Below are positions 30,001-51,000 of a stretch of DNA of 64,000 bases, piece after piece (position 1 is the stretch's first letter; the number at the start of each line of letters is the position of its first letter). The position numbers are program-made. Origin of the DNA: Vulcanimicrobiales bacterium (GTDB taxonomy: Bacteria; Vulcanimicrobiota; Vulcanimicrobiia; Vulcanimicrobiales; Vulcanimicrobiaceae); the NCBI GenBank assembly GCA_038215615.1, contig JBBQQR010000006.1, forward strand, positions 1 through 64,000, in the 5' to 3' direction.

Positions 30001-33000
30001 ATAGACGCTGCTGCCGTCGAGTTGCTCTTCGCCTGCGAGCGCGACGTCGTAATGCGCGGCGCGCACCTGCGCGATCACCCGAAGCTTGGAGGGCGCGAAC
30101 GGATCGGGCTGCGTGCTGCCCGGATAGACCGACGAAATGTTGAAGCCCAGCGGAGAATATGCAGGCCCTTCGCAGTTGGGACCTCGGCTCGTTTTTGGCT
30201 GCGCTAATCCTTGGTCGATCTCCACGGTGGCGCACCAATGATCGAACGTGCGCAACACGACGTGCTCGTTTCCGCGGGTGACCACGCCGGCTGCGTCGCG
30301 GTGCGTGATTGCCGTGTCAAAAGCAACGTAGGCCGGAAGTGCGCGAGCTTCCCACGCGTCTTCGGCTTGAAAGAACATTTGCAACGGTGTCAGAACCGCC
30401 GCGAAGATGGCGCCCGGTAGCACGCTAACGCCCGCCGGCGGCGCTAAGAGGTATAGCGGCGGCTGATCTCCTGTGCGCGCTGATACGTTTGCGTCGCGCG
30501 CGAACGAAACATGGCCTCTCCCGAAGCTTCGGGCGGCATGCGCAGGACGATGTGCGTGCCTTGCGCGCTAGCCTCGACCGTAAGCGGAACGCGCGTTCCC
30601 AACAAGATCGCTCGCCGGTATTCGTTGTGATCGATGCCGATGGCGGGCGGACCCTGTGCGTACAAGTGAATCGTGGGGCCCGCCAGCTCGCTTTCCACTG
30701 AAACGGCCAGCGCCCAGTGCCCACGTTCGGTTTCAGCTGCCAGCAACTCACCGAGTACCAGCTCGAGTCCGAACAGATCGGCGTCCGGATCTGCGGCCAG
30801 CCCCCGCACCGCGTCAATGGCGCTGCGCCGCACGCGTGCGACCGAGAACGCGTCGGCTGAGTCGATCGACCAGTTCATTCATTCTGTTGTACCACGATTC
30901 CAGGCTTGCCACGCGCTGCGAGCATGTGTTAGACTCCCCCCGTAACATGTCGAGACACCATCAATCCTTTGTGGTCGAGGAGATTTTCTTTTTTTCAGCC
31001 TTGCTGCCAATCGCTTGGCTGTTTGCGCTACTTTTCGGGCACAAAATCTTCGACCGCCTCCACCGTGGCCGCCGCTCCGGCCGCGCCCTCCTGACCCAGC
31101 CGGTAGAGTAGGCCCCTTTTCTCCCGTTACCCTTGTAGTGATTTTGGGCGGGTGATATACTATTCGCCTGTGCCCTGGCCGCTAGGCATAAAATAGAGAA
31201 AGAGCGAGTCACCACATGCGGAGTGGTCGGCTTCGTTCTTTTTAGCGTGCTCGGGTCTGCGCAAAACGGCTTCCTTCCTTATATACACTTCCATAGAGAG
31301 AGATAACGAATGGCGAAAGCGACGGCTCCAAAGTCCCCTTCCACGCGCGGAGCCGGGGCCTCGCCTGCCAGCGCGCGCGCGGCCAAGAGCCGCTCGAAGC
31401 GAACGGCGGGTCAGGTCGACGGCGCGCCGGGGACCGTGCAGCCCAGCACTTTTCCGATGCCCACGGGTGCCTTCACCGTTGAGCAGCCCGAAGATTCGGG
31501 CCCCAAACGCGAGCGCGTCAGCTTCGCGAAGATACCGCACGTTCTAGAAGTGCCCAACCTCATCGAGCTGCAGATGGCCAGCTTCGAGTGGTTCAAGACC
31601 GAAGGTCTGGCCGAAGCGTTCGCTTCGATCTCGCCGATTAAGGATTTCACGGGCAACCTGGTCCTTGAGTTCGGCGAGCACAGTTTGGGCGAGCCGAAAT
31701 ATTCGGTTGAGGAGTGCCGCGAGCGCGACATGACCTACAGTGCACCACTGCGCGTGCGCGTGCGTTTGATCACGGCCGAGTCGGGCGAAATCAAAGGCAT
31801 TCCCGACCAAGAAATTTTCATGGGCGACTTTCCGCTCATGACCAACAAGGGAACGTTCATGATCAACGGCGCGGAGCGCGTGATCGTGAGTCAACTCGTG
31901 CGTTCTCCCGGCGTGTACTACAACCAGGACGTCGATACGAATGCGCGCCCGACGTACAATGCGACGATCATTCCCAACCGCGGAGCCTGGATCGAATTCG
32001 AAACCGACAACGGCACCAAGAACGACGAAACCGAAGGCACCATCGGCGTCCGCATCGACAAGAACCGCAAGATCTACGTATCGACATTCGTGCGCGCGCT
32101 TTCGCGTCCCGACCTCGGCTTCAATTGGGAAAGCGACGAGGCGATCATTAAACTGTTCGACGATTCGCCGCTGGTCCGCAACTCGATCGAAAAAGACAAG
32201 GACGTCAAGACGCGTGAAGACGCGCTCAAAGAGATTTACAAGAAGCTGCGTCCGGGCGAACCCGAGAACGCGGATAACGCCGAGAAGCTGCTCGAGTCGC
32301 TATTCTTTGACGACAAGCGTTACGATCTGGCCGGCGTGGGCCGCTACAAGCTCAACGGCAAGTTTCAGTACCGGATAGACAATCCCGACCCGGAGATGCG
32401 CGGCGCGCAGCCGAGCGTCTACGTCGACGAATACAAAGACGCCGGCTTGAAGATGCCGCCGATCGAAAAGCGCAGCCTGACGCGTGAAGACATGATCGCG
32501 GTTATCCGCCGCCTCATCAAAGTCGGGACGGGCCAGATCGGCAAAGATGATATCGACCATTTGGGCAATCGCCGCATCCGGTCGGTCGGCGAACTGCTGC
32601 AGAATCAATTCCGCGTCGGACTGCTTCGCTTGGAACGTGTCGTGCGCGAGCGCATGACGGTGCAAGATATCGAAACGGTCACGCCGCAAGCGCTGATCAA
32701 CATTCGCCCCGTTGTCGCCGCGATCAAAGAGTTCTTCGGATCGTCGCAACTCTCGCAGTTCATGGACCAGACCAACTCGCTGGCCGAGTTGACGCACAAA
32801 CGCCGCCTCTCCGCGCTTGGCCCGGGCGGCCTTTCGCGCGAGCGCGCGGGCTTCGAAGTGCGCGACGTCCACCACTCGCACTACGGCCGCATCTGCCCGA
32901 TCGAAACGCCGGAAGGCCCGAACATCGGTCTGATCGGCTCGCTCGCGACCTACGGACGCGTCAACCGCTTCGGATTTATCGAGACGCCATACCGGGTCGC

Positions 33001-48000: not shown

Positions 48001-51000
48001 TGCGACGGTGCAGTACGAAGGCGAGTATGCAGACCATACCGCCGTGCACGCTCCGCCGAAAAAGACGCAGTACGACAAGACCGGCTTCAAGGGGATTAGC
48101 CCCGAAGATCTGTAGATCGCAGTGAGGGGTCGCGCTGCCGTTTTTGTTCGTTACCTCAGCGGCGACGGCGCGGGACACGTCGGCTGGGCGTTCGAGTACG
48201 ATCCGCCTAAGCTGATTGATTCGGGATCGGTTGAGAATCACACGGGAGGCATCCATGCGGATGCCTCCCACATGGATTTTTGGAACGAACTGAGTTCCGA
48301 TCCCGTCGCGTGCATGCGCAAGAACCAGTACGACGACGTAAAGTTCGTCGACGTGGACGATCCCGACCCCGTAACCGCTTATGAGACGGTGCTCTGGATC
48401 GGGAAACACGCCTACATGGCCATTTTGCGCAATTGCCTCGACGACGCATACGACGTGCTGCGCGCGTACGGCGTCCCCGATCTCGAACCACCCTCCCACG
48501 ACTGGCTTCCGAGAAATTGGTTTGCCCATTTCAACGGTACGCAGCGGCCCGTGGCCGAGTTTGATTGGCACGAGGGTCTTACGGAACGAGCCGGAGGAAG
48601 CCAAACGCTGCCGGCCCCCGATTCACTCGAACCGAAAGCTCCGGATTGGCGCAACCCGTTGCGCACGGTCTTTTCCTTATTTCGGTTGGAACTTTTTCGC
48701 GATTTCTTTCGCGGGCTCGTTCACCGCCGCCGCCGCCGGGGTTAGCTGTACGGCGCGCGCGGCTTCCTGATACGCGCAGAGCAAATTCACCAGCGCCATC
48801 TGTTCGGGCGTCTTGCACGGCGATTCCAATAGGCGGGGGCTGCAGACGATAATGCTCGCGCATTGAGCGCGCGATATCGCGACGTTGAATCGGTTTTTAT
48901 CAAAAAGGAAGGCTGCGTCGCGCGGCAACGTCTGCGAACTCGAAGTCGCCATGCTGTAAATCACGACGGCCGCTTCTTGACCCTGGAATTTATCCACCGT
49001 GCCGACGCGCACGCTGCCGTGTCCCTCCGACTCCAGCAACTCTTTGATGCGGATCCGCTGCAAGTTGTACGGCGCGACGATCAGGATGTCGGCTTGCGTC
49101 ACCGGTCGCGGCGGAGCCGCGCCTATCGTCACGCTGCCCTGCAATAACCGGCTGACCGCGCCGGTAATCCAGGTGGCTTCCTCGTCGGACTTGCGGCCGT
49201 TGCCATCGTGTACCACCGGCGCGAACAGCGGTCCGGCGGCCGCAAAATCCGGTGCGTCGATCGAGTTGGGTTCGGTCGTAGGCGAGTTGTGAAGCCGGCC
49301 TTCGTAGATGTTCTCTGAAATAAAACCGGTTAACGCGGGGTTCAATCGATAGGTCGTATCCAAAAAGACGCCGCGGTCGGGCGGAATCGTGCGGTCGCCC
49401 GCAAGTAAATGCTCTAAGATCGAAAGATCGGTCCCGGCGGGATGCGTCCCCTTCGTCACTTGCGGGAGCTGCAGCGGATCGCCCAGCAGTACGACGTTTT
49501 TTCCAGCCAAGGACGCGATCAAGGCGTCGGCCAGCGAAACTTGCCCGGCCTCATCGATGAAGATGTAGTCGAACTCCCGCACGAGGCTCTCATCCGCCCA
49601 TGCGTACGTCGTGCCGGCGGCCAGCAGGCACAGCTCGGACGTGAGCGCGCCGAGGTCGTCCTGGCTCTCCATCATCGGCCAATCGGTCAGCGCTTCGTAC
49701 CTCGATCCTTCGGTTGTCGCGCTTTCTTTGTGGCAGCCGTGAAAGCGAAACTCCCGTTCTCTTGCGACTTCCTCGACTTTTCGCAGCAAGTTGTGCACGG
49801 CTTTGTGACTTTGCGCGGCTACGCCGACGCGTTTGCCGGCCTGCAGCAGGTCGACGATCGCGTAAGCTCCGGCAGTCGTCTTCCCCGAACCGGGCGGACC
49901 CTGCACGAAGAGCGCGCTCCGACCGAGATTTCCAATGACGCTGGAAACGGAAGCCGGTGTAACGAGCGCGGGTTGAATCGGGGCCGAGCTTTTGAGCGCC
50001 GGCGCGCGCGCGAAGAGCATCTGCAGGGTCGCCGGGTAATCGGCTTGTAGCGTCCCTGCGGCGTACCCTTGCGCGATCCGTTCCATAGCAGCGCGTTTCT
50101 TGTGTTGCGGAATCGGCGTGCCGGGGATGAGCGCGCGCAAGGCGGCCGGCTCGATCGCCTTGGTGAGTTTTATTTTCAGTTCGCGTTTCGCGCCGTCGAT
50201 GGAGACAATTTCGCCGGCCCCTTTTTGCGAGTACGGGTCGTGACAGCCTTTGAACGGGAGTCTGTGCTCCTGCGGCGGGAACGTGTAGGTGTAGACCAGA
50301 TTGCGATCTTCGGGACTGCGCTTGTATGGCTCGATCTCCACGCGCAACGTGAGATTTCCGAGCGCCTCGTCATCATATTCTTGCAGATCTTGCGGGTTCG
50401 CGCAGCGGTCGAAATATTTCCACCACTCGGGTTTGTGTTCGCGCCTGTGATACTGCAGCAGATTGCCCAGTAGCCACCGGGCGCGAAGCTCATCGCTCCA
50501 GCCGCGCAGCTCGGCGGCCGAGTCCGGAGCCGGAAGGCCCTCGAGAAAGCCTTTCTCGAGATCGGTTTGACTGGTTTCCTCCGCGGGTTTGACCACCGGC
50601 GCGCCCCGCCACTCGAGCGGCTCTTCACGACCGGTGTTGAGCTCGTCGCGGAGAACGCGCAGCCATTCCCGCAGCTGGAACGTGGAGCGGCAGTCGTCTT
50701 CGTTATAAGCGCGGATGTCTTCTAAGATGGCGTCGTCGGGCTGGTCGAGCCACGATTCGAACATGACGATCGACTCGTCGCCGCCCTTGACTTGCGTCTC
50801 GCGCTGCAGGCCGTAAAATGCCTCAACTTTTTTGATCGAGTAAGACGGCTGAGAGATCACCAAGCCTTGCCGCACCACCGGGTAGAGATCGACGAAGATG
50901 CCTTGCCGCAGGAAATCGTCAACCTCGCGTTCACGCGACCCGTAACGGCCCATGAGTCGCTTGAGAACGGAAATCTCGTACGAAGCGTAATGGTAGACGT

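Follow-up and report, generated by a model that had tools for sequence, protein, structure and literature searches.

In Escherichia coli the genes for the beta and beta' subunits of RNA polymerase, whose amounts need balance, belong to one rplKAJL-rpoBC operon with an attenuator between rplL and rpoB. Other ribosomal-protein and transcription-factor operons carry autoregulatory 5' leaders, for which there are Rfam leader families. In green-algal chloroplast genomes, rpoB and the rpoC genes are reportedly non-adjacent (PMC1931444, PMC1513399, PMC2997540), and profile families exist both for fused rpoB-rpoC (NCBIfam NF007172, NF011417) and for the cyanobacterial rpoC1/rpoC2 genes (TIGR02387, TIGR02388). 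For the wider transcription-translation supercluster, operon splitting and 'operon concatenation' have been described (Brandis et al., 2019; PMC6735719).

Here we describe a locus in a 64,000-nt window, the whole stretch of DNA that was analysed, from a metagenome-assembled genome (MAG) of the family Vulcanimicrobiaceae, in which rpoB and rpoC are 9,066 nt apart. We propose, with a probability of about 0.8 and from sequence evidence, that rpoB and rpoC are transcribed as separate units in this genome and in the family as a whole. The lineage-wide uncoupling of rpoBC is real, and is a form of operon splitting; what is new is a predicted separate rpoC promoter in the family genomes read, present even where the spacer is 211 nt and of one rare class with the rpoB promoter, and, in one of the two family clades, a leader hairpin backed by covariation.

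The separated genes and their filler

The separation by 9.07 kb asserted in an earlier note on this DNA is borne out by the open reading frames, the profile scores, the single copies and contigs that bridge the junctions. Searches of the 2.21-Mb, 54-contig genome found rpoB and rpoC each single-copy and intact (Table 1); the TTG start of rpoC is preceded by GGAG, and its alignment begins at residue 1 in all relatives. The rplKAJL genes lie on contig C12 with no rpoB behind them, and rpsL is located 40.7 kb beyond rpoC. The models for fused rpoB-rpoC are matched only partially, with scores of 1155.7 and 1433.2 bits where the cut-off is 5372.

Table 1. Features of the rpoB-rpoC locus, in window positions
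Feature	Position	Strand	Support or remark
rpoB promoter (predicted), -35 TTGTAG, 17-nt spacer, -10 TATACT	31133..31161	+	read from sequence
CTGTGCC motif, start-site-proximal, 6 nt past rpoB -10	31168..31174	+	common to rpoC promoter
rpoB 5' leader, ~141 nt	31168..31309	+	putative attenuator
rpoB (beta subunit)	31310..35233	+	1307 aa; TIGR02013 1754.6 bits
Intrinsic-terminator-like hairpin, AAAGGGCCCC-loop-GGGGCCCUUU, then CUUUAAAAA	35236..35270	+	3 nt past rpoB stop
TonB-dependent receptor, N-terminal CarboxypepD_reg domain	35362..38778	+	PF13620 1.4e-12, PF00593 1.3e-11
370-aa unknown protein, weak lipoprotein signal	38788..39900	+	no Pfam/NCBIfam family
Strong intrinsic terminator (predicted), 14-bp GC-rich stem, then UUUUUUAUUUU	39924..39965	+	stem 100% complementary
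136-aa unknown ORF, uncertain gene	39952..40362	+	no family found
Alpha/beta hydrolase	40473..41213	+	PF12697 5.4e-17
Prepilin-type N-terminal methylation-motif protein	41218..42357	-	PF07963 1.1e-05, TIGR02532
DHA2-family MFS efflux transporter	42149..43783	+	TIGR00711 251.6 bits, cut-off 230.2
STAS-domain protein	43839..44168	+	PF01740 4.4e-12
rpoC promoter (predicted), TTGACC-17-TATAAT	44157..44185	+	11/12 consensus positions
CTGTGCC motif, 6 nt past rpoC -10	44192..44198	+	same arrangement as at rpoB
rpoC leader element 'type A', irregular hairpin	44211..44277	+	ends 22 nt before start codon
rpoC (beta' subunit)	44300..48115	+	1271 aa; TIGR02386 1811.3 bits

Eight filler genes on both strands had been counted earlier; seven are supportable, and both strands are indeed occupied, one gene lying opposite to the rest. 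Among the gaps fetched, a TonB-dependent receptor immediately follows rpoB only in the genome studied and its congener G132. The 370-aa gene, probably co-transcribed with the receptor, has an unnamed hypothetical protein as its closest ESM Atlas cluster (0.93), and only remnant fragments of it are left in the congeners G050 and G247. For one filler protein, the closest cluster in the ESM Atlas is made up mostly of Vulcanimicrobiota. The 136-aa reading frame has tblastn matches of 51-58% in all three congeners, the true start of the MFS transporter is probably downstream of the annotated one, and the STAS gene, whose stop codon overlaps the rpoC -35, holds the rpoC-proximal position only within the genus. 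The alpha/beta hydrolase is the sole filler gene common to many genera, with homologues on the same strand upstream of rpoC in 16 of 24 other genomes of Clade II (the family has two clades) for which either the gap or the 8 kb before rpoC was fetched. Taken together, the filler is unremarkable chromosomal cargo, arranged in at least three predicted transcription units: the receptor with the 370-aa gene (a strong terminator at its end), the hydrolase, the opposite-strand pilin-like gene, and the MFS gene with the STAS gene; this cargo turns over fast, even inside the genus.

Distribution across the family and beyond

Our family sample comprised 80 genomes from 78 genera, 66 of which yielded both genes: near full length on one contig in 33, fragmentary on one contig in 7 and on different contigs in 26. 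The gap in those 33 genomes is 0.26 kb in one (G051, an unpublished genome) and 0.8-1.1 kb in two; another 28 fall at 2.0-85 kb, and the remaining two, both in one genus and with the genes on opposite strands, at 334 and 357 kb. This reproduces the earlier claim of a split with variable filler across the family (gaps of 0.8-357 kb in 32 of 33 one-contig genomes), as well as the claim that sister lineages keep the genes adjacent: of 45 genomes outside it, drawn from 20 families, 43 have the pair adjoining, with 3/3 in the sister family and 9/9 in the next, and across diverse phyla in 78 of 80 loci, the other two reaching a contig end (78/78 informative). As a family trait the split is family-wide, as had been stated, and yet not exclusive to the family, since the two exceptions among the 45 led to family f20 of this phylum, where two genera have rpoB and rpoC on different contigs in 8/8 genomes; this is a second split, independent of the Vulcanimicrobiaceae one. 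The near-adjacent fragmented cases listed previously (G017, G010) are scaffolds with N joins, and are not countable.

In a tree of RpoB and RpoC, G051 lies deep inside Clade I, not at its base, where G002 is its sister (local support 1.0) and the genus with 334-357 kb gaps its next neighbour (0.965). Clade II genomes carry, on the rpoB-rpoC strand, a cassette of a HIBADH-like dehydrogenase, a DUF5069-like protein and the alpha/beta hydrolase; the entire 2.3-kb gap of G032 consists of these three reading frames, overlapping and on the same strand. Between Clades I and II the gaps and flanks share no gene family, and neither do those of Clade I genomes among themselves.

Promoters, leaders and terminators

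A consensus-like promoter of rpoC's own, as first suggested in the earlier note, is upheld at the level of sequence by its match to the consensus and by its conservation in position and form across the family. A scan of 18 kb listed 6 promoter-like sites (4.3 +/- 1.9 in shuffles), and this one, 115 nt ahead of rpoC, ranks first. The 211-nt spacer of G051 still carries TTGACG-17-TACGAT and the motif, in a 47-nt stretch with ~78% identity to the rpoB promoter of G051; in sister families f2 and f3 the rpoB-rpoC spacers measure 7-8 nt and ~60 nt, respectively, and the promoter is absent. The rpoB promoter, described before as near-consensus, is weaker here, its -35 matching at only 3/6 positions and the site going unlisted by the promoter scan; the same position in other genera reads TTGAC(G/C)-17-TAtAcT.

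The two promoters appear to belong to one rare class (TTGAC-17-TAtAaT, 5-6 nt, C(C/T)T(A/G)TGCC). A composite pattern, defined as a -10-like hexamer, 5-8 nt and CT[AG]TGCC, is present at 5 sites of the 2.2-Mb genome; adding a TTG -35 leaves four sites, at rpoB, rpoC, rpmH and one other. The strict pattern stands upstream of rpoB in 43/45 family genomes, and upstream of rpoC in 34/46 family genomes versus 0/5 outgroup genomes. In each of 5 Clade I genomes, the single exact copy of CTATGCCCCNCGG belongs to a polymerase-gene leader, that of rpoC in four and that of rpoB in one. Genome-wide the motif shows no enrichment (5 sites versus 20 in a reversed-genome control), and the similarity of rpoB and rpoC upstream regions within a genome was above all 200 shuffles in only 6/44 cases. 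In the genome studied it was not (16.0 versus a shuffle mean of 15.8), so that what its two promoters have in common is the hexamers plus a motif of 7-8 nt.

Behind its promoter, rpoC would have a leader of ~107 nt whose hairpin is a candidate new leader RNA, restricted to one of the two family clades. An alignment of 27 genera or species (A1) was analysed by RNAalifold and pair counts: across the 15 pairs, 96.8% of cells are paired versus 28-50% when slid, and 5 pairs have both sides changed versus 1.4 +/- 0.6 in shuffles (0/500). The covariance model R1 scores 79.8 bits (E 1.9e-16) at this leader, the genome's only strong match, and finds one match per genome in 34/81 family genomes; 33/34 of these sit 18-130 nt upstream of rpoC, among them 7/8 genomes left out of model building. 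No strong match appeared in 18 Clade I, 3 f2 and 9 f3 genomes, which is a weak negative because 63-93 of ~100-4,000 first-look candidates were scored per genome. In the genome studied, the single-sequence fold gives the inner hairpin only, with the outer helix absent, its stability is not above shuffles (z +0.59), and pair 18/50 is an A-G mismatch.

The rpoB leader holds a terminator-like hairpin and U-run at about 31198-31246, in which the fold pairs AGAAAGAGCGAG with CUUCGUUCUUUUU, and CGAG and CTCGTTCTTTTT are kept across 24 genera (alignment A2). Its fold is no stabler than shuffles (z -0.85), RNAalifold on the MAFFT alignment A2 gave no consensus structure, and a hairpin-plus-U-run counter lends the attenuator reading no support because 4/5 coding-sequence controls were positive too. 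The hairpin after rpoB (-23.3 kcal/mol, z -2.12) is matched in stability by 7/200 shuffles, and was missed by the pattern scan because its U-run lies partly inside the stem; for the terminator after the 370-aa gene (-28.8 kcal/mol, z -7.18) no shuffle of 200 was as stable.

On these features, the rpoB unit would comprise its own promoter, a leader with an attenuator-like hairpin and an intrinsic terminator, and the rpoC unit its own near-consensus promoter and a leader with the conserved irregular hairpin. We infer that the predicted promoters and terminators are in use; the interval from STAS to rpoC lacks a terminator, however, so transcription of the MFS-STAS unit could also run on into rpoC. 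Matching promoters and leaders presumably hold beta and beta' in balance. The enabling change would have been that rpoC became transcriptionally independent in the family ancestor; adjacency then being dispensable, the spacer would have been free to grow, shrink and rearrange, from 0.2 kb to >300 kb.

Alternative readings and related systems

Three other accounts of the locus would dispense with this history. That MAG assembly or binning falsely joined rpoB-bearing and rpoC-bearing fragments is conceivable for a genome in 54 contigs in which conserved genes such as rpoB and rpoC recruit reads of many different organisms (depths as high as 1,780 for conserved bins versus ~6-10 in the filler), and relatives G010 and G017 are patchwork scaffolds joined by N at these very genes; we nevertheless judge its probability close to negligible. 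Logan contigs, which are independent assemblies of run X1 (containing 0.96 of the stretch's words, and probably the source sample of the MAG itself), cross both junctions, one of 2,479 nt on the rpoB side (34702-37180, 0 differences) and one of 1,756 nt on the rpoC side (43340-45095, 1 difference). Depth is even across the filler and non-conserved flanks, the rpoB-rpoC stretch contains zero N, congeners G132, G050 and G247 keep the gene order, and closed single-contig family genomes are also split, by 4.7-30 kb (G006, G009, G015, G024, G043, G059, G075) or 334 kb (G004). Recent insertion of a genomic island or mobile element into the spacer would agree with gap content that varies between genera, and with a receptor and 370-aa gene beside rpoB in two genomes only. 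It is extremely unlikely given that the gap genes scanned include no integrase, transposase or phage family, that no tRNA was found, that repeats are only short and chance-like (flanking ones <=31 nt, 67-77% identity), that GC is 0.57-0.63 throughout as in the flanks, and that the hydrolase is widely shared in Clade II; moreover, the 370-aa remnants in G050 and G247 mark a loss of the receptor unit in those two genomes rather than a gain here. Many long operons contain minor internal promoters, and rpoB-promoter transcription might likewise cross the 9-kb filler into rpoC, since 6/7 filler genes share the strand of rpoB and rpoC, the tight G032 filler could be co-transcribed, and no terminator stands between the STAS gene and rpoC. 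This, too, we consider very unlikely: a terminator hairpin directly follows rpoB and a very strong one the 370-aa gene, the pilin-like gene points the other way, gaps reach 85 kb, the genes are on opposite strands in one genus, and the rpoC promoter is conserved and followed by a conserved leader.

Less easily set aside, at odds we put somewhat below even, is that a cassette entered the spacer in the family ancestor, with the rpoC promoter arising later or borne on the cassette, and that all later gaps, including the 0.2-kb one, derive from one split by gain and loss. Its present-day mechanism is that of two separate units, and only the order of events differs. With G051 placed well inside Clade I, one split with later shrinkage needs far fewer events than many splits; deletions do happen, as the fragments in G050 and G247 attest, and Clade II has a common cassette that makes up the G032 gap. 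Against this, no gene family links the gaps or flanks of the two clades or those of Clade I genomes, the promoter is present in the family genomes read, including the one with the 211-nt spacer, and the likeness of the G051 promoter to its own rpoB promoter is easier to reconcile with local duplication than with delivery by a cassette, with the caveat that G051 is an unpublished genome. The order we favour would have rpoC gain its independence before any change in the spacer.

Compared with described systems, the two-unit arrangement resembles that of green-algal chloroplasts in that an ancestral rpoB-rpoC linkage is lost across a whole lineage; those are organelle genomes with extreme rearrangement, whereas the present case is a family of free-living bacteria whose genomes are ordinary in other respects. 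Fused rpoB-rpoC and cyanobacterial rpoC1/rpoC2 are likewise lineage-specific remodellings of the locus, but fusion goes in the opposite direction, both genes here being full length and separate, and the cyanobacterial cut falls inside rpoC and leaves the pieces adjacent. The supercluster account describes similar terminator-promoter arrangements at junctions, with breaks between operons and, in the passages considered, rpoBC treated as a unit, whereas here the break is within rpoBC (Brandis et al., 2019; PMC6735719). With autoregulatory leaders, the rpoC leader shares a conserved 5' UTR structure just before the ribosome-binding site of a core expression gene, once per genome; it differs in that an Rfam search returned no family at E <= 1 and in being limited to one clade of one family. 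The locus shares with E. coli the same two genes, their order and strand, and a terminator-like RNA structure upstream of rpoB; it differs in that rpoB is unlinked from rplL and that rpoC, 9 kb from rpoB, has a predicted promoter and leader of its own; co-transcription or translational coupling of rpoBC in the E. coli sense would be impossible.

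Separated rpoB and rpoC genes and the DNA between them

The window encodes both RpoB (1307 aa; 1754.6 bits on TIGR02013, cut-off 801.15) and RpoC (1271 aa; 1811.3 bits on TIGR02386, cut-off 963.5), each with its full set of Pfam Rpb2 or Rpb1 domains, and no further copy of either gene came up when the complete genome (2.21 Mb in 54 contigs) was searched in six frames. Where a canonical operon has rpoC within a few hundred nucleotides on the same strand, the gap here is 9,066 nt, in agreement with the 9-kb separation described in an earlier note; of the eight filler genes counted there, seven are supportable. 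Logan contigs bridge both junctions (34702-37180 with 0 differences, 43340-45095 with 1), and read depth across the filler is even at about 6-10. The run behind these contigs contains 0.96 of the stretch's words and is probably the sample from which the genome came; this support therefore shows independence of the assembler rather than of the sample. Nor does rplL directly precede rpoB: rplKAJL sits on contig C12, where unrelated ORFs and no rpoB come after it, and rplL was not found in the ~4.5-7.7 kb fetched upstream of rpoB in genomes of the sister family (f2) and the next family (f3). The rpsL gene lies 40.7 kb downstream of rpoC.

Features of the locus and its surroundings, in window coordinates
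Feature	Position	Strand	Remarks
Multicopper oxidase	26920-28800	+	Three Cu-oxidase domains; apparently fused to a ZIP/ZupT-like metal transporter segment (residues 371-584)
rpoB	31310-35233	+	
RpoB N-terminal extension	31310-31510		~67 aa ahead of the PRK00405 model
RpoB C-terminal tail	34760-35230		Acidic, Glu-rich; ~155 aa past Pfam domain 7
GAAGAG repeats	34931-35150		Encode part of the acidic tail
Terminator-like hairpin	35236-35262		-23.3 kcal/mol; begins 3 nt past the rpoB stop
TonB-dependent receptor with CarboxypepD_reg domain	35362-38778	+	
370-aa unknown	38788-39900	+	
14-bp hairpin and U-run	39924-39965		z -7.18; closes the receptor unit
136-aa unknown	39952-40362	+	
Alpha/beta hydrolase	40473-41213	+	
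Prepilin-type protein	41218-42357	-	
DHA2 MFS exporter	42149-43783	+	
STAS protein	43839-44168	+	
Predicted rpoC promoter	44157-44185		TTGACC-17-TATAAT, 11/12 matches; overlaps the STAS stop codon
Clade II rpoC leader element	44211-44277		67 nt
rpoC	44300-48115	+	
Terminator-like hairpin and U-run	48119-48138		Begins 4 nt past the rpoC stop; overlaps the start of the next ORF
207-aa ORF without family	within 48119-48745		Conserved after rpoC in three congeners (77-86%)
RecB-like nuclease (TM0106-type) and SF1 helicase fusion	48677-52159	-	1160 aa; TIGR03491, 309.5 bits

Between the two genes stand two terminator-like hairpins (35236-35262 and 39924-39955), an opposite-strand gene and a putative promoter, an arrangement that would not be expected to yield one transcript. 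Nothing in the sequence suggests that the filler is a genomic island or mobile element: no integrase, transposase or phage families were found among the gap genes, the gap holds no tRNA and no significant flanking repeats (short weak ones only), and its GC of 0.57-0.63 is the same as in the flanks. Outside the gap, the acidic RpoB tail is also present in f2 genomes, and the nuclease-helicase fusion, which converges on rpoC, is likewise found after rpoC in a congener (G247).

Distribution of the separation and its phylogeny

Searches with RpoB and RpoC recovered both genes in 66 of 80 other genomes of the family Vulcanimicrobiaceae, drawn from 78 genera. With both genes near full length on one contig, the gap measures 2.0-85 kb in 28 genomes, 0.8-1.1 kb in two (G053 and G049), 334 and 357 kb on opposite strands in two members of one genus (G004 and G080), and 0.21-0.26 kb in the unpublished G051. 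Seven further genomes have fragmentary genes on one contig, and 26 have rpoB and rpoC on different contigs, among them a four-contig genome (G013) with the genes on separate megabase-sized contigs; unpublished genomes in these counts are G028, G021 and G041 (different contigs) and G008 (gene missing). The earlier note's account of a family-wide split with variable filler is borne out, with gaps of 0.8-357 kb in 32 of the 33 single-contig genomes and 0.26 kb in G051, as is its recurrence in closed genomes, eight of which are split.

Only two of the seven fragmentary cases, G017 and G010, looked near-adjacent, and both have N joins at these genes. A second rpoB 3' end 213 nt before rpoC in G010 seemed a footprint of ancestral adjacency and was rejected as a probable patchwork: NN joins fall exactly at both rpoB copies, which are 82% identical, and a 60-nt rpoC 5' fragment is spliced on. 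The metagenome-derived scaffolds concerned (L044/L045 on G010 contig C32, L046 on G017 contig C55) carry N joins of 2-11 nt inside rpoB and rpoC; in them, conserved genes are probably stitched together from different populations. G017, with 5 N runs in 2.9 kb, was left out of the gap counts and the tree, and G010 was also set aside.

Outside the family, the RpoB C-terminus and RpoC N-terminus served as queries against 45 genomes that represent 20 further families of the phylum. In 43 of them, including the sister family (3/3) and f3 (9/9), the two genes are on the same strand of one contig and no more than about 240 nt apart, so the adjacency that had been noted in sister lineages holds in this larger sample. 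The two exceptions led to family f20, in which genera g112 and g114 have the genes on different contigs in all eight genomes where both were found; in one (G133, loci L085/L086) each gene is over 180 kb away from the nearest contig end. Genomes of g112 and g114 are large (6-9.5 Mb). The pair is adjacent in their sister genus g113 (5/6 genomes, 68-153 nt apart, the sixth uninformative) and in f19 (4/4), f21 and f17. The f20 separation is a second, independent split in the same phylum; the split is a trait of the Vulcanimicrobiaceae, as the earlier note had it, but is not confined to them. More widely, 80 loci were taken from named genomes of many phyla (including Bacillota, Actinomycetota, Chloroflexota, Acidobacteriota, Verrucomicrobiota and Ignavibacteriota). 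In all 78 that are informative, rpoC begins 47-599 nt past the point where the RpoB alignment ends; the other two have less than 600 nt of contig left.

In a FastTree phylogeny (LG + gamma) of 54 query-anchored RpoB+RpoC sequences, from which G017 was dropped at 32% coverage, f3 and f2, in that order, fall outside the family, which is monophyletic (local support 0.998). It has two main branches, Clade I (0.991) and Clade II (1.0); the window's genus belongs to Clade II. G051 lies nested within Clade I, where its sister is G002 (1.0) and the genus with gaps of 334-357 kb is next to it (0.965); its gap size, promoter, upstream likeness and tree position all rest on an unpublished genome.

Filler content differs even among close relatives. 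Of the window's congeners, G132 has a 10.1-kb gap filled as in the window, G050 and G247 (gaps of 6.0 and 5.6 kb) lack the receptor and retain the 370-aa gene only as fragments, and G158 has no rpoC within 12 kb. Across Clade II, the alpha/beta hydrolase is present in 16 of the 24 other genomes fetched, in each case 0.2-7 kb ahead of rpoC and in the same orientation. Clade II gaps also share a HIBADH-like dehydrogenase, a DUF5069-like protein, a MASE1-GGDEF-EAL protein, a Plug-type TonB receptor and an F420-oxidoreductase-like protein; indeed, the entire 2.3-kb gap of G032 consists of the dehydrogenase, the DUF5069-like protein and the hydrolase as overlapping same-strand ORFs. No flank genes were found in common among Clade I genomes, or between Clades I and II.

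Promoters and leader RNAs

The consensus-like rpoC promoter that had been proposed is recovered by our analysis, and predicted promoters of the same form precede rpoC in the family genomes read, even within the 211-nt spacer of G051; the sister-family spacers (7-8 nt in f2, about 60 nt in f3) hold none. As at the rpoB promoter, the -10 is followed after 5-6 nt by C(C/T)T(A/G)TGCC. The strict pattern (a -10-like hexamer, 5-8 nt, CT[AG]TGCC) occurs upstream of rpoB in 43 of 45 and of rpoC in 34 of 46 family genomes, and in none of five outgroup rpoC regions. With a TTG -35 added, it has four sites in the 2.2 Mb of the window's genome: rpoB, rpoC, the rpmH-rnpA-yidC operon and one other. The motif was rejected as a general promoter feature, being rarer genome-wide than in a reversed-sequence control. 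The promoter of rpmH-rnpA-yidC-jag-trmE (C5:129394-129436, minus strand; TTGACG-17-TATACT, 6 nt, CTGTGCC, then a 5' hairpin) appears to be of the same class as those of rpoB and rpoC, and the closed genome G004 has one-mismatch motif copies at both record ends, presumably where rpmH would be expected.

In only 6 of 44 genomes are the two upstream regions more alike than in every one of 200 shuffles. In G051 the likeness covers 47 nt, from -35 to motif; in the window's genome it is not significant, and we therefore claim no promoter-leader duplication there. Five Clade I genomes have their sole exact copy of CTATGCCCCNCGG at the rpoC leader (four) or the rpoB leader (one), and four of the five carry a one-mismatch copy at the other gene. 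A dispersed REP-like repeat, (GGGTCC)TTCGACAAGCTCAGGATGACA, has 15 copies in the window's genome, sometimes in tandem (sites include C1:90034, C1:97310, C1:210085, C4:39010, C5:20340, C7:57171 and C8:26886), and recurs in relatives, including the rpoB and rpoC leaders of G024, G007, G005 and G016.

Across genera, the rpoB leader comprises a 5' hairpin, a purine-rich tract and then CGAG-hairpin-CTCGTTCTTTTT. In 24 genera, conservation covers both CTCGTTCTTTTT and its CGAG partner, and the two pair in the fold of the window's own leader; with these features, it looks like a putative attenuator. RNAalifold on a MAFFT alignment gave no consensus structure, and no covariance model was therefore built for it. 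A counter of hairpins followed by U-runs was abandoned, four of five coding-sequence controls having scored positive. Clade I rpoC leaders have the same build as the rpoB leader, whereas the Clade II element differs. For the latter, RNAalifold on 27 sequences predicts an irregular hairpin (GC-N-ACG-GU-GGGN ... CUUACG-loop-CGUGAG ... N'CCC-UG-CGU-NA-GC) in which 96.8% of cells are paired, versus 28-50% with partners slid, and five of the 15 pairs show substitutions at both partners (1.4 +/- 0.6 in shuffles, 0/500); the single-sequence fold of the window's leader supports the inner hairpin only.

The covariance model of this element, R1, has a single match in the window's genome at 79.8 bits (next 18.4 bits, E 0.7). 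It matches 34 of 81 family genomes, once each, and 33 of these matches sit 18-130 nt upstream of rpoC; these 33 include seven of the eight matched genomes outside the training alignment (one of which, G019, is unpublished). No strong match was seen in 18 Clade I, three f2 and nine f3 genomes or in G044 and G057, where part of the first-look candidates were scored. An Rfam cmscan of 30800-48800 (E <= 1) left the leaders unmatched and gave only three sub-threshold matches, all on the terminator at 39892-39965. Compensatory pairing and a constant position before rpoC mark the Clade II element as a predicted structured cis-regulatory leader.

Order of events and significance

As read from sequence, rpoB and rpoC are predicted to be independent transcription units, and the filler to be ordinary, fast-changing chromosome. 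The change common to the family genomes read is a predicted promoter before rpoC, of the same rare class as that of rpoB; with rpoC able to be transcribed alone, adjacency may have been free to drift. On the order of promoter and first insertion, the evidence points both ways. Parsimony on the tree favors one early split, followed by later shrinkage in G051, while the lack of any filler common to both clades and the rpoB-like promoter of G051 favor an rpoC promoter that preceded the first insertion.

With the two genes read as separate units, matched promoters and leaders may hold beta and beta' in balance. It is possible, though we consider it improbable at roughly one chance in five, that operon coupling was replaced by a dedicated RNA-level circuit. 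In it, the rpoB promoter and its attenuator-type leader would have been copied to rpoC, and in one clade this leader would have become a novel structured RNA that sets beta' synthesis in response to RNA polymerase or to an assembly intermediate (e.g., alpha2-beta). If so, leaders that autoregulate an RNA polymerase subunit would form a class not known before, and the circuit would account for this phylum having broken one of the best-conserved gene pairs of bacteria at least twice.

Our literature search, which was not exhaustive and is no proof, turned up no bacterium in which rpoB and rpoC are described as separated. The consulted portions of Brandis et al. 2019 (PMC6735719) treat rpoBC as one unit of an ancient supercluster, with insertions between operons and not inside the pair; in those of the Vulcanimicrobium description paper, rpoB appears solely as a qRT-PCR reference gene. 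The family is reported to include a cultured member (PMC9758169), which opens the predictions made here to laboratory tests.

The Vulcanimicrobiaceae, with more than 70 genera, and independently two f20 genera manage without rpoB-rpoC adjacency. This adjacency serves as a near-universal anchor in comparative genomics and is usually attributed to the need for equal amounts of beta and beta'. The split lineages offer a natural test of its purpose and of possible replacements, for which matched promoters, leader attenuators and a clade-specific structured leader are candidates; annotation and marker pipelines that assume an rpoBC block will misjudge these genomes. Separation of rpoB from rpoC is also reported from green-algal chloroplasts.
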